Shown: piece after piece, positions 4,409 to 37,832 of the stretch | How the letters are laid out: each line of letters opens with the position of its first letter | Numbering within the stretch: the stretch's first letter is position 1 | DNA from: Phycisphaerales bacterium | GTDB taxonomy: Bacteria; Planctomycetota; Phycisphaerae; Phycisphaerales; UBA1924 | Assembly (NCBI GenBank): GCA_046153875.1 | Contig: JBJXFE010000046.1 | Coordinates: 1-61,994, forward strand | Reading direction: 5' to 3' | DNA length: 61,994 bases | Translations under genes and position numbers: made by a program | Notes under the pieces: model-generated | The model's database searches: none | Told to the model about the DNA's origin: nothing | What the model saw: only the letters and a program-made list of their open reading frames with translations

Positions 4409-7400
4409 CTACTTCCCCTCGTACCAGTTCTTCGCCGCATGCGAGTCCACCCGGATCGGCACGGCGAAGGACATGCAGTTTTCCATGCGGTCCACGATCG
4501 TGCGCCGCGCGGCCTCGGCCTCGCCCTCGGGCGCCTCAAAGACCAGTTCGTCGTGGATCTGCAGGAGCATCTTCACCGGACCGTCGCGGAACCGATGGAA
4601 GAGGTCGACCATCGCCACCTTGATGAGGTCCGCGGCCGAGCCCTGCACCACGCTGTTGATGGCGACTCGCTCGCCCAGGGCGCGGCGCTGCGGGTTCGGG
4701 TCGTCGATGTCGTGGATCGGGCGGCGGCGCTTGAGCATCGTCTCGACGTAACCGAACCGCCGCGCCTGGGCGATGCACTCCTCGAGGAACGTCGAGATGC
4801 CGGCGAATCGCCGCTTGTACCCGTCGATGATCGCCGCGGCGTCCTTCTCGCTGATCTTCAGGCGGCGGGCCAGGCCGAAGGGCGTGATGCCGTAGACGAT
4901 CCCGAAGTTGACCATCTTCGCCCCGTCGCGCTGCGACCGTGTGACCTCGGCGGGCTTCACGCCGTGGATCTGCGCGGCCACGGTCGTGTGGATGTCCTCC
5001 CCTTTGTGAAACGCTTCAATCAGAGCCGGGTCGCGCGAAAGGTGGGCGAGCAGGCGCAGCTCGATCTGCGAGTAGTCGGCGCTGATCAGCACGCTCCCCG
5101 GCGGGGCGATGAACGCCCGACGGATGTCGCGCCCGATGTCCGTGCGGATGGGAATGTTCTGCAGGTTCGGGTCGCTTGAGGCGAGCCGGCCCGTCGCGGC
5201 GACGGTCTGGTTGAAGCTCGAGTGGATCCGCCCGGTGTCGGGGTTGATCTCGTCCTTGAGCGCGACCAGGTACGTGCCGACGAGTTTGGTGAGCTGGCGG
5301 TACTCGACGATGAGCGCGGGGATCGGCGTGGTGACGGCCGGGTCCGCGGCCAGCTTCTCCAGCACCTCGATGTCGGTCGAGTACCCCGTCTGCGTGCGTT
5401 TGACGGGCTTGAGGCCCAGCCCCGCCCCGCCCTTCTCGTCGTCCGCGTCGGGCTTGTTGAAGAGGGCCGCGGCGAGCTGCTTGGGGGAGTCGGGGTTGAA
5501 CACACGGCCGATCGCGGACTTCGACTCCGTGTTGAGCCGCTTCGCGAGCTCGTCGATGCGGGTCTGGAGGCGGGCGCGCTGACGGTCGAGCTCCGCCGGG
5601 TCCACGAGGATGCCGTTCCACTCCAGCTCCGCGAGCACCTCGACCAACGGCAGCTCGACGTCCGCCCAGAGGTCCCACAGGCCCATGGCGCGCAGCTGCG
5701 GGAACATGCTGTCGCGCAGGCGGAGCGCCACGTCGGCATCTTCGGCCGCGTACTGCGTCGCCAGGTCGATGGGCACGGTGTCGAACGTCCGCTGGTTGAC
5801 GCCGCTGCCGACGAGGTCGGTGTACGCGATGTTGCGGCGCTGGAGGAGCGCCTGGGCAAGCGCATCGAGGGAGTGCGAGGATCGTGAGGAGTCGATCAAG
5901 TAGCTGGACACCATCGAATCGCAGCCGGCCCACCCGTCCTGATCCGCTTCGTCCCTCCGTCCCCTCGTCCCTCCGTCTCTTCCTCCCTCCACCAGCCCCC
6001 GCACCTCGACCCCGTGCTTCCGCAGCACGAGCATGTCGTACTTGAGGTTGTGCCCGCACTTGGGGATCGCTGGGTCTTCGAGGATGGGCCGAAGCACGCC
6101 GAGCACGGCCTTCTCGTCCAGGTGCTTCTCGGGTGTCGGCGAGCGAACGGGGATGTAACACCCTTCGCCGGGCGTGATGGAAACGCTGACGCCGCAGAGC
6201 TTGCAGCGAAGGGGCGAGAGCGAAGTCGTCTCGGTGTCGATGGAGACGACCGCGGCCTTCTTCATCCGCGCGGCAAGGGCTTCGAGCTGCTTTTTCGTGG
6301 TGACGCACGTATAGGTGCCGTCCTGGGCGTGGATGGGCACGGCGTCGATCCCGCGGCGTGACTCGACCGCGGCAAAAAGGCCACCGTCGCCGGGAGTTTC
6401 GCGCGGGGCCGGCGCGGCCCGTTTCGCGGCCGGCGGCGGGGCAGGGGCCGGAGCGGTCTTCGACGCGCCGTGATCCGGTGCGTGCGTCGCGGGCGCGGCG
6501 GATGAACCCGCGCCGCCGAGCAGCGCTTTGACCTCGTCCTGATACCGGTTGAATCCGAGCTCGCGGAACCGTGCGATCAGCGGTTCGAGGTTGAGCTTCG
6601 CCGAGGCGGCGGCGGCCAGATCCAGCTCCACCGGCGCGTCGTAGCGGAGCGTCACGAGCCGCTTCGAGAGCGGAAGAAGCCCGGCCGACTCGCGGAGCTT
6701 TTCGCCCCGCTTGCCCTTGATCTCGGCGGCGTGGGCCAGCAGGTTGTCGAGCGTTCCGTACTGCGCCAGCAGCAACGCGGCCGTCTTCTCGCCGACGCCC
6801 GGCACGCCGGGGACGTTGTCCACGGTGTCGCCCATGAGCGCGAGCATGTCGATGACCTGCGCGGGGGCCAGGCCCGTGTCGGCCTTCAGCGCGGCCTCGT
6901 CGATGATGGTGTCGCTGTGGATGTCGTAGAGCTCGACGCGCCCCTCGGCGCCGGAACCCTCCAGGAGCTGCTTGAGGTCCTTGTCCTTGGAGATGATCCG
7001 CACGCGCAGGTCGGGGTGCTCCCGGCGCAGTCGCGACACGAGCGTGGCGATCGCGTCGTCGGCCTCGAAGCCCTCGGCGCCGACGATCGGCACGCCGATC
7101 TCGCGGAGCATCGCCAGGCACCGGTCCACCTGCACGAAGAGGTCCGAGGGCGGCGGCGGACGGTTGGCCTTGTACTCGGGGTAGAGCTCCGAGCGAAAGG
7201 TCTCCTTGTCTCCCGAGACATCGATCGCGACGGCGACGTAATCCGGCGGGCCGCCGGCCTCGATCATCCGCTTCTCCTGCCCGCGCAGGAGCTTGAGCAT
7301 CATGCCGACGAACCCGAACGTCATGTTCGTCGGCTCTTTTGTGACCGGCGACGACATCGGCGTACGGATAGCGTGGTAGGCCCGGAAGAACTGGGCGTAG

Positions 7401-7426
7401 CCGTCGATGAGGTACAGGGTGGGCAT
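4409..7426 (-). CDS. polA: DNA polymerase I (5-prime nuclease, 3-prime-5-prime exonuclease and polymerase domains)
   Basis: MPTLYLIDGYAQFFRAYHA 5-prime nuclease N-terminus; SIDTETTSL exo I motif; polymerase motifs DYSQIELR, RRxAKxxNFGIIYG and QIHDELVFE. ATG at 7426 (rev) is the conserved start; the track ORF is extended 69 codons upstream. Contains an in-frame octamer-repeat insert (see repeat 5951-5990) and a ~55-aa Ala/Pro-rich linker after the 5-prime nuclease domain. Confidence 0.9.
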   Translation of the reverse strand: MPTLYLIDGYAQFFRAYHAIRTPMSSPVTKEPTNMTFGFVGMMLKLLRGQEKRMIEAGGPPDYVAVAIDVSGDKETFRSELYPEYKANRPPPPSDLFVQVDRCLAMLREIGVPIVGAEGFEADDAIATLVSRLRREHPDLRVRIISKDKDLKQLLEGSGAEGRVELYDIHSDTIIDEAALKADTGLAPAQVIDMLALMGDTVDNVPGVPGVGEKTAALLLAQYGTLDNLLAHAAEIKGKRGEKLRESAGLLPLSKRLVTLRYDAPVELDLAAAASAKLNLEPLIARFRELGFNRYQDEVKALLGGAGSSAAPATHAPDHGASKTAPAPAPPPAAKRAAPAPRETPGDGGLFAAVESRRGIDAVPIHAQDGTYTCVTTKKQLEALAARMKKAAVVSIDTETTSLSPLRCKLCGVSVSITPGEGCYIPVRSPTPEKHLDEKAVLGVLRPILEDPAIPKCGHNLKYDMLVLRKHGVEVRGLVEGGRDGGTRGRRDEADQDGWAGCDSMVSSYLIDSSRSSHSLDALAQALLQRRNIAYTDLVGSGVNQRTFDTVPIDLATQYAAEDADVALRLRDSMFPQLRAMGLWDLWADVELPLVEVLAELEWNGILVDPAELDRQRARLQTRIDELAKRLNTESKSAIGRVFNPDSPKQLAAALFNKPDADDEKGGAGLGLKPVKRTQTGYSTDIEVLEKLAADPAVTTPIPALIVEYRQLTKLVGTYLVALKDEINPDTGRIHSSFNQTVAATGRLASSDPNLQNIPIRTDIGRDIRRAFIAPPGSVLISADYSQIELRLLAHLSRDPALIEAFHKGEDIHTTVAAQIHGVKPAEVTRSQRDGAKMVNFGIVYGITPFGLARRLKISEKDAAAIIDGYKRRFAGISTFLEECIAQARRFGYVETMLKRRRPIHDIDDPNPQRRALGERVAINSVVQGSAADLIKVAMVDLFHRFRDGPVKMLLQIHDELVFEAPEGEAEAARRTIVDRMENCMSFAVPIRVDSHAAKNWYEGK
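5951..5990 (-). repeat. 5 tandem 8-nt units (plus strand gtccctcc gtcccctc gtccctcc gtctcttc ctccctcc; GAGAC/GGGAC core on the polA coding strand) inside polA
   Basis: Read directly from the sequence. Translated in-frame as VEGGRDGGTRGRRDEADQDG, between KHGVEVRGL and CDSMVSSYLID of the 3-prime-5-prime exonuclease domain. E. coli PolA, as recalled, has no insert there. Confidence 0.8.
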
Positions 7427-7461
7427 GAGATTGAGTGGAGTGAAGGAAAACCGAACTCGTG

Positions 7462-37711: not shown

Positions 37712-37816
37712 GCGGCCCGCGCCACGCTTGCCCGCGCCAAGGGCGCGCGGTTCGACGCTCTCCATCTCGCGGTCACCCGCCGGGGCAGGTCTCTTCGTCT
37801 GTTCCGACCCGTCGCT

Positions 37817-37832
37817 CGCGCTGCGGGTCCTG
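37817..37832 (-). repeat. 2-unit remnant of the GAGAC octamer repeat (plus strand ggtctctt cgtctgtt) immediately 3-prime of the metalloprotease gene stop
   Basis: Read from the sequence. Same orientation as the gene-internal arrays (GAGAC on the sense strand). Only two units, so this could be chance. Confidence 0.35.

Follow-up and report, generated by a model that had tools for sequence, protein, structure and literature searches.

The DNA considered here is a 62 kb window (61,994 nt, 70% G+C) from contig JBJXFE010000046.1 of a Phycisphaerales bacterium, and this window is the extent of the source-genome sequence that was analysed. Within it lie four unrelated housekeeping genes that each carry, inside the coding sequence, one short array of tandem 8-nt repeats, and it is the nature and origin of these arrays that concern us. 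The genes are polA (DNA polymerase I; 4409-7429, minus strand), a MiaB-family methylthiotransferase gene (24638-26413, minus strand), carB (carbamoyl-phosphate synthase large subunit; 28053-31670, minus strand) and lysA (diaminopimelate decarboxylase; 34559-35950, plus strand). Pfam agrees with the identities assigned to all four in a preliminary description of the window, finding 5_3_exonuc_N, 5_3_exonuc, DNA_pol_A_exo1 and DNA_pol_A in polA, UPF0004 and Radical_SAM in the miaB-like gene, CPSase_L_D1/D2/D3 and MGS in carB, and Orn_Arg_deC_N and Orn_DAP_Arg_deC in lysA.

All four arrays are recovered by Tandem Repeats Finder (TRF) with a period of 8 nt. The lysA array (34941-34975, plus strand; TRF 34943-34973, 3.9 copies, 95% matches) reads GGAA GAGACGGA GAGACGGA GAGACGGA GATACGCA on the sense strand, has GAGACGGA as its unit, and encodes GRDGETERRRYA in a loop of the pyridoxal phosphate-binding barrel. 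In carB, the array (29797-29831, minus strand; TRF 29798-29831, 4.2 copies, 92% matches) is built from the unit GAGACAGC, with the sense strand GAGC GAGACAGC GAAACAGC GAGACAGC GAGACAGG, and encodes a 12-aa stretch in the linker that joins one synthetase half to the other. The miaB-like array (25936-25971, minus strand; TRF 25940-25969, 3.8 copies, 90% matches; listed unit GAGACGNA) lies in the linker joining the UPF0004 and radical-SAM domains, where GGGAA GAGACGCA GAGACGGA GAGACGTA GAGACCGA encodes the peptide GRDAETERRRDRG. The polA array (5950-5990, minus strand; 5.1 copies, 72% matches) comprises about five degenerate 8-nt units in a loop within the 3'-5' exonuclease domain, its sense strand reading GGAA GAGACGGA GGGACGAG GGGACGGA GGGACGAA and its peptide EGGRDGGTRGRRDEA. 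The purine-rich strand is the mRNA-sense strand in all four host genes. A GAGAC core had been described for every array, and this holds for three of them; the polA units are of a G-rich GGGACGRR type, with GAGAC in just one unit and GGGAC in the rest.

The arrays stand well clear of the background. The three-unit GAGAC pattern GAGACNNNGAGACNNNGAGAC, allowing up to two mismatches, matches the window eight times, always within the four arrays, against a shuffle expectation of 0.40, and none of 100 shuffles reaches eight. A two-unit pattern, on the other hand, behaves as expected by chance (15 matches against 8.1 expected, 10 of the 15 within the four arrays), and this deprives of significance a two-unit remnant that had been placed at 37817-37832. 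In fact nothing lies there: the sole match nearby is CAGACGAAGAGAC at 37789-37801, with one mismatch, some 78 nt past the stop at 37711, and the convergent spacer around it shows no fold signal (z about 0 against shuffles). An isolated two-unit GAGACAAGGAGAC at 7200-7212 (minus strand), in the 5' part of polA, is likewise consistent with chance.

GTCTC and CGTCTC are recognition sites of Type IIS restriction enzymes, and the arrays might on that account be regarded as a by-product of Type IIS restriction-modification (GAGAC/GTCTC), or else as a product of chance or faulty assembly. Chance is excluded by the shuffle test. Arrays recur, with reading frames intact, in independent NCBI, JGI and ENA assemblies, and sister modules at equivalent sites in relatives lack GAGAC altogether. 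This family of explanations is thus effectively refuted, and the likeness to the BsmBI/Esp3I site can be set down as the coincidence it had been suspected to be.

That all four arrays are in frame, and that three encode similar peptides, had been pointed out in the preliminary description. Since 8 has no factor in common with 3, any 8-nt repeat yields a single cyclic octapeptide whichever frame is read, a rule that was verified for eleven unit types: whatever the phase, GAGACGGA is read as ETERRRDG and GAGACAGC as ETARQRDS. The likeness of the lysA, miaB and polA peptides is real, though two of them had been exchanged (GGRDGGTRGRRDEA belongs to polA and GRDGETERRR to lysA), and it follows from their DNA units. 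The distinct carB peptide reflects a distinct unit and not a change of reading phase, as had been thought. In-frame status and near-identical peptides therefore carry no information, and what remains for selection to require is that the total length of the insert must be divisible by three; the window polA is 36 nt longer than that of the related locus L210 at the array site, and the window carB exceeds the empty site of L127 by 51 nt.

The same arithmetic bears on the proposal that the peptides themselves are selected, as charged flexible linkers that serve protein function. They are hydrophilic, and they are located in loops and linkers, as that proposal would have it. The 8-nt period, however, is a property of the DNA and not of codons; modules of the same kind also occur between genes, in the pyrimidine-sense orientation and as hairpins, and the sites are polymorphic for their presence or absence. 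Selection for the peptide is accordingly very improbable. A scan of 360 orthologs for periodicity at the peptide level was insensitive, as four units amount to just 1.3 peptide periods.

Comparison with orthologs shows where the inserts lie. Alignments were made with 120 orthologs each of LysA, CarB and PolA, and for MiaB with 39 of the 150 listed representatives together with the MiaB-family gene of L128. In all four proteins the insert site is a hypervariable loop or linker holding lineage-specific inserts, and for LysA, CarB and PolA neither the closest orthologs nor the solved structures have the window's insert, which bears out the preliminary description. The LysA loop, bounded by AGVGK...AAL and IGYFNIESE, varies in length from 0 to about 60 residues; in other Phycisphaerales it holds GRDGETERRRDE (P0041), AEWQSGKV (P0020, P0026) or RHGGTEAR (P0021, P0025), and in P0083 it bears a 12-residue insert. 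The solved LysA structure 2p3e is contiguous across the site, between residues 122 and 123, and in the AlphaFold model of the window LysA (mean confidence score, pLDDT, 89.5) residues 121-140 fall to 67-76 against 91-97 in the flanking blocks. The CarB linker (YSTYE...DDEIRVTD) has no insert in P0129 or P0134, carries a common 11-residue insert in the window, P0126 and P0131, and reads AEWQSGK in P0123-P0125. In some orthologs it holds heptamer-derived pairs (GIRDSALGIRD...NAESRMPNAES), and in P0209 and P0239 an entire hairpin element is read in frame as RDEETERRRDEVGAHSVSSSLDLSVS. E. coli CarB (1bxr) is 20 aa shorter than the window protein at this linker. The closest PolA orthologs, at 80%, 78% and 76% identity, lack the window insert, and Klenow is contiguous across the site (residues 114-117); the MiaB representative P0361, 80% identical, is also without it. 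Orthologous sites may thus be empty, filled with other units, filled in the opposite orientation, or occupied by whole in-frame hairpins.

The DNA at these sites is informative in its own right. In lysA, the loop that carries the window array (site 1) holds GGAA(GAGACGGA)2(GAGACGAA)2 in L121, GAGC GAGACAGC GAAGCAGC GAGACAGC GAGACAGG in L122, (AGGCACGG)2(AGGCACGA)2 in L123, and a GAGACGAA array interrupted by a 21-nt palindromic insert in L124. The L122 lysA block and the window carB block are one 36-mer with a single base different, so that near-identical copies are found at unrelated loci. In L209, the window's closest LysA relative, a pyrimidine-strand array sits exactly at the position of the window's purine-strand array. 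The orientation of site 1 is opposite in L124 and L209 as well, purine-sense in one and pyrimidine-sense in the other; the lysA DNA of these two is 89% identical overall and 93-95% identical in the flanks of the site, against 43% at the site itself. Close relatives thus differ site by site in the presence, unit type and orientation of the array between flanks that are about 94% identical. The carB linker tells a similar story. It is empty in L127, with ACGCCG between TACGAGACCGGC and GCGGAGGACGAG, and holds an array of the GAGACAGC family in L125, four GCAAATCA units in L126, and the inverted form (GAGACGRA)4-GTG-GGTGCG-CAC-(TYCGTCTC)4 in L128; the tail of the window carB array, GGGGTGCGGGCAC, resembles the loop GTGGGTGCGCAC of this L128 hairpin. 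Units without GAGAC occupy equivalent sites in relatives (AGGCACGG, GCAAATCA, GGCAAAGT, GCGACGGA), and GAGAC is the commonest core, yet dispensable. One side observation concerns the neighbourhood of lysA in L124, where the region 9000-15800 holds a DNA methyltransferase gene, a fragment encoding 86 aa of LysA, a Cas12f/TnpB-like gene, and cas1, cas2 and cas4, with heptamer arrays occupying the spacers.

Neither the GAGAC core nor the four genes delimit the phenomenon. Modules of the same construction lie in frame in relatives' genes for DnaE, UvrA, GluRS/GlnRS, a class II tRNA synthetase, UDP-glucose dehydrogenase, a MqnC/CofH-like radical-SAM enzyme and a LuxR-type regulator, as well as at second sites in CarB and LysA. 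Most intergenic copies closely follow a stop codon or occupy a convergent spacer, in many cases as pairs of a purine arm and a pyrimidine arm. Taking the window together with Phycisphaerales relatives, 24 period-8 arrays were counted in 216 kb (111 per Mb), a density and a coding-sequence share that are inflated because L121-L128 were mostly chosen for insert-bearing proteins. Diverse contigs selected by CarB gave a single array in 883 kb (1.1 per Mb), some 100-fold sparser; these come from a metagenome scan, carry for the most part 51-57% identical CarB of other phyla, and serve as background only. In the matches listed from a species-level genome collection, the four-unit pattern was found in more than 120 stretches from many phyla, with Phycisphaerae and other Planctomycetota over-represented. 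The modules are therefore dispersed at high density: they occupy intergenic positions, and many conserved genes hold them at a small number of hypervariable loops and linkers. In the 23.5 kb seen of L127's genome there are none.

Several metagenome-assembled genome contigs end in pure arrays of 50 to more than 170 nt (L004, L011, L047, L057, L060, L063, L067, L115 and others). Long repeats evidently break short-read assemblies, and the true abundance of arrays is for this reason underestimated.

In outline, the basic module is about four tandem 8-nt units (7 nt in sister families) with one strand purine-rich, and in Phycisphaerae its edges are sharp, ...GGAA (GAGACGRA)4 GAAGTG(G). Modules are often arranged as inverted pairs separated by a loop of 6-45 nt, with a conserved GAAGTG...CACTTC junction, and such pairs fold into hairpins of 35-45 bp. 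Examples were found in L128, L111, L209, L077 and L106. As hairpins the doublets are highly stable, with fold z scores of -4.6 to -9.5. The carB hairpin of L128 reaches -62.7 kcal/mol (z -5.8), and a 136-nt inverted GAGACGRA pair at L111:7460-7595, which splits the HHH_6 domain of DnaE (Pol III alpha) in frame, folds as RNA to -91.6 kcal/mol (z -9.5). An inverted partner was sought near the window arrays and none was found, and the arrays themselves fold no better than shuffles (z about 0); they are solo, unstructured modules. A second lysA site illustrates how one state may pass into the other. At site 2 the window and L121 have no insert, L209 has a heptamer doublet that is intact (84 nt, -54.4 kcal/mol), and L124 retains an intact right arm beside a degraded left arm (66 nt). 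Hairpin doublets, then, decay to single arms. Elsewhere, on the Tepidisphaeraceae contig L106 (2900-7000), three hairpin modules occur within 8 kb, each starting a few bases past the stop of one of three tandem paralogs with C-termini of the form ...GGSIYLYE..., a terminator-like position.

These data also bear on the simplest account of a tandem repeat, in which each array was born locally, and independently in each gene, by replication slippage of an 8-nt seed. The tandem structure fits such an origin, as do compound arrays of neighbouring unit types (L013; L124, 16905-16980) and the unit-like motifs found in conserved flanks, such as GAGAC in the YETG codons of carB and, in L210, GACGAAGAGTGG at the site in polA. 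Yet only periods 7 and 8 are enriched, with no arrays of periods 9-12 in either the relatives or the control set, and copy numbers cluster at 4-5, with a peak at about four and no pile-up at the detection threshold. Slippage at separate loci does not account for identical unit order, variant units included: L128 uvrA and site 2 of L128 carB have in common a 33-nt pyrimidine-sense module, CT[CT]CGTCGC TGCGTCGC TCCGTCGC TCCGTCGC, and the variant second unit of the one is also in the other. Nor does it account for inverted pairs, and a change of one unit would shift the frame of an essential gene. Independent local birth is distinctly unlikely.

In the window the GAGAC strand is always sense, as had been described; among relatives this is a strong bias and not a rule, since their coding sequences hold copies with the pyrimidine strand as sense, and whole hairpins besides. 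Of the solo arrays that lie in coding sequence, about 16 have the purine-rich strand as sense and 2 the pyrimidine strand, or 13 and 2 once orthologous sites are merged (two-sided binomial p about 0.007), in a tally that is small and curated by hand. These counts rest solely on real gene calls and Pfam-verified open reading frames (ORFs); a coding-frame heuristic based on third-position GC content (GC3) was dropped after it misassigned known genes, the window miaB and L123 lysA among them, to shadow ORFs. The bias has a counterpart in hydropathy. Mean Kyte-Doolittle values run from -0.8 to -3.6 for purine-sense readings and from -0.4 to +2.0 for pyrimidine-sense readings, so that the peptide of the pyrimidine strand (for example SVSPSLRL) is the more hydrophobic. 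The pyrimidine-sense unit that is found in coding sequence encodes SVAPSLRR (-0.30), and among the pyrimidine-sense readings only SVPPSLRP (-0.36) is less hydrophobic.

Strand bias can also be read as a sign of function, if the arrays are cis-elements in DNA or mRNA: binding sites for a regulator, Shine-Dalgarno-like GGAG pause sites that would aid the folding of domains during translation, G-quadruplexes, or sites on antisense RNA at which Rho loads. Besides the bias, the mode of four units and the position in domain linkers speak for this, and the units of lysA and polA contain GGAG or GGG tracts. For comparable heptamer arrays, it has been proposed that they form G-quadruplexes or are bound by a regulator (PMC4692102, PMC4679880, PMC2700814). 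Against it, close relatives are empty at one and the same site, or carry unrelated units there, or have the array on the opposite strand; the genome of L127 does without arrays over the stretch seen; and the carB unit GAGACAGC has neither GG nor GGAG. A scan of Rfam at the gathering threshold matched no family to the arrays, tRNA being the sole match, and solo arrays are unstructured. A cis-acting function, be it in regulator binding, pausing or termination, is, on balance, unlikely. The polA array is a special case in that its sense strand has at least four GGG tracts spaced 5-13 nt apart, unlike the other three window arrays, and a G-quadruplex is conceivable there, whether in DNA or in mRNA. 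As a general explanation the G-quadruplex was rejected on inspection of the sequences, GAGACAGC and GCAAATCA units being without GG.

The preliminary description knew of no element with such a structure, which is too strong, as comparable ones have been described (PMC2700814, PMC4692102, PMC4679880, PMC10969869). The Rickettsia palindromic elements (RPEs) are dispersed repeats found in frame in many housekeeping genes (PMC10969869), and they resemble the modules in adding a peptide at structurally tolerated positions of unrelated housekeeping genes, absent from orthologs (PMC10969869). Like them, the modules are a dispersed multi-copy family lying in frame in unrelated conserved genes whose orthologs lack the insert. 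An RPE, however, is a unique-sequence palindrome of about 150 bp with one conserved frame, whereas here the module is 32-36 nt and frame-independent, and the doublets measure about 85-135 nt, are made from 7/8-nt units and were recovered only from non-Rickettsia assemblies. The window copies, having no inverted partner, do not possess the palindromic body of some 100-150 bp that marks an RPE.

A second parallel is with REPINs, inverted doublets of REP (repetitive extragenic palindromic) elements that form hairpins, have singlets as decayed doublets and abound near gene ends (PMC3116915). Hairpin doublets with decaying singlets occur in the relatives (L209 and L124 at lysA site 2), not in the window. 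In REPINs a GTAG-headed palindrome would be expected; here the arms are tandem octamers or heptamers with the junction GAAGTG...CACTTC, and many copies lie inside genes. At one locus the two kinds of repeat do meet: at L210:4246-5095 (CDGVJN010000351.1), directly downstream of polA in the 80%-identical relative, a gene for a 148-aa Y1_Tnp protein (PF01797, like the REP-associated tyrosine transposases, RAYTs) is flanked by inverted GTAG-type REP hairpins, GCGGCGTCAGCCAGTAGCCCAGGCCGTAAGGCCTGGG, with single GAGAC-type units inside them. The gene is absent from the corresponding window position, and a tblastn search of the window and the other compared loci returned no homolog. In these loci no RAYT gene is linked to the modules, the sole Y1_Tnp gene being flanked by classical GTAG REPs. 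The arms of the doublets could also serve as the inverted repeats of a miniature inverted-repeat transposable element, and by inspection no target-site duplication is visible between filled and empty carB (L128 and L127) or lysA site 2 (L209 and the window).

A third parallel is with dispersed arrays of heptanucleotides: the STRR repeats of cyanobacteria, four-unit GGGNATC arrays in Xanthomonas and Nostoc (PMC4692102), and TAACTGA arrays in Beggiatoaceae, cyanobacteria and Bacteroidetes (PMC4679880). These occupy many loci, show strand asymmetry, prefer about four units, and lie mostly near gene ends and in some cases in ORFs; how they spread is not known (PMC4692102, PMC4679880). The present arrays agree with them in a unit of 7-8 nt, few copies with a mode near four, many loci and strand asymmetry. 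They differ in that the period is mainly 8 nt and the units are others, most of them without G-quadruplex potential (only the polA variant, on inspection, has at least four GGG tracts), and in that many copies are in-frame inserts of essential genes or form hairpin doublets, with the reservation that the loci were mostly selected for arrays. Geobacter metallireducens has 'global regulator binding sites' (classes 1 and 2) of four tandem GTTGCTYN or three tandem TCTCCGTS(Y), paired on opposite strands at variable distance, and four-unit heptamer elements within genes (PMC2700814). On the opposite strand TCTCCGTS(Y) corresponds to a unit like GAGACGGA; the Geobacter elements were described as intergenic protein-binding sites in one deltaproteobacterium, with no recurrent in-frame insertion into hypervariable loops of conserved proteins reported (PMC2700814). 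The HOOF-print octamers of Brucella, tandem 8-bp units at several loci (PMC1183211), belong with contingency repeats that are hypervariable in copy number and serve in typing or in phase variation, where non-essential and often surface genes are switched on and off; here the copies number about four (4-5), the hosts are conserved, presumably essential housekeeping genes, and the frames are intact.

Inverted arms made of short tandem repeats, as seen in the doublets, also recall the Foldback transposons of eukaryotes, which are built in that way on a kilobase scale and have transposase-bearing relatives. A literature search for the exact repeat strings found no papers, and no report was found for Planctomycetota, nor one of recurrent hotspot occupation in conserved enzymes. 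By analogy, the modules would appear to be a variant of the hepta/octanucleotide arrays already described and mechanistically unsolved.

On the reading that we favour, to which we would give a probability of roughly 0.6, the four blocks are half-copies of minute non-coding repeats dispersed over Phycisphaerales genomes, and are tolerated passengers where they stand. The modules are probably selfish, spread by copying and filtered by selection in coding sequence. Spread would proceed by a copy-and-paste or ectopic-recombination process, with slippage serving to diversify the unit families, and the survivors in essential genes would be those inserted in a permissive surface loop with a length that is a multiple of three and, usually, with the purine-rich strand as sense. 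Insertion in any phase gives one cyclic peptide, which for the window's unit mixes is free of stops and strongly hydrophilic (ETERRRDG or ETARQRDS). It is probably because the 8-nt period gives the same hydrophilic peptide whatever the phase that coding sequence tolerates the modules. The blocks would then be useless to PolA, MiaB, CarB and LysA, and kept only where a hydrophilic excursion of 11-45 aa does no harm. Of the three options offered in the preliminary description, the mini-insertion element comes closest, though not as a frame-constrained one, since an 8-nt period is independent of frame.

Several observations weigh against passengers that spread by copying. Neither an enzyme that would mobilise the modules, nor a target-site duplication, nor defined ends of the element were found, and the four window arrays are mutually different, none being a fresh copy of another. 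The lysA arrays of the window and L121 are 88% alike between flanks only 65-76% alike, a point that also belongs on the side of a cis-element: array sequence better conserved than its surroundings could mean that the sequence itself is under selection, and not that insertion or homogenisation has recurred. A functional cis-element would also agree with the mode of four units and with the position at domain boundaries. The size of the orientation tally and the choice of relatives, noted above, count on the same side.

Beyond passenger status, it is possible, though we hold this tentatively, that the modules are a class of frame-proof mobile micro-elements, in which the foldback doublets would be the active form, and a dedicated enzyme, such as a hairpin-recognising HUH/RAYT-like protein or a template-reiterating polymerase, would make the copies, perhaps with phages assisting their transfer. 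As to phages, a predicted viral contig (L218/L227; IMG/VR 3300009873_000021, GC about 0.66) carries two modules of Phycisphaerae type, of which one is a hairpin doublet that has the GAAGTG...CACTTC junction. The four-unit pattern is matched by 88 viral stretches in all. Transfer of modules from host to host by phages is conceivable.

The window has other repeats of a more ordinary kind. Tandem repeats of 81 nt and 93 nt (37844-37999 and 39754-39961) lie in a minus-strand ORF extending from 37834 to about 41200; they encode Cys/Asp-rich modules (DCNGNG.PD.CE; TLTVADFGCFQGKYVLG), and are codon-periodic and unrelated to the 8-nt modules. The translation of the ORF suggests a secreted metalloprotease-like protein. 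The ORF as called (37834-41508) runs through the complement of a tRNA-Pro (CGG) gene at 41440-41513 (plus strand), and the true start of the gene must for this reason lie further downstream. At 19295-19950 (plus strand), a region of a large ORF is periodic at 12 nt and 84 nt; these too are ordinary codon-periodic repeats, and their consensus would encode a low-complexity segment rich in Pro, Gly, Gln and Glu.

The origin and spread of bacterial hepta- and octanucleotide arrays have been an open question since the STRR repeats of cyanobacteria. Phycisphaerales offer a comparative system in which empty, filled, inverted, doublet and decayed states can be seen at fixed hotspots of conserved genes, so that insertion boundaries, turnover rates and orientation rules are directly readable, and the presence of modules can be correlated with gene content in search of an enzyme. 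Judging from the sequences, essential enzymes appear to tolerate in-frame inserts of 12 to about 45 aa, some of them with mRNA hairpins of -60 to -90 kcal/mol, which is of relevance to protein engineering, to the alignment of orthologs, to annotation, and to metagenome assembly, where long arrays end contigs. If a frame-proof micro-element does exist, it would explain the colonisation of loops in PolA, DnaE, UvrA, CarB, LysA and tRNA synthetases across the class.

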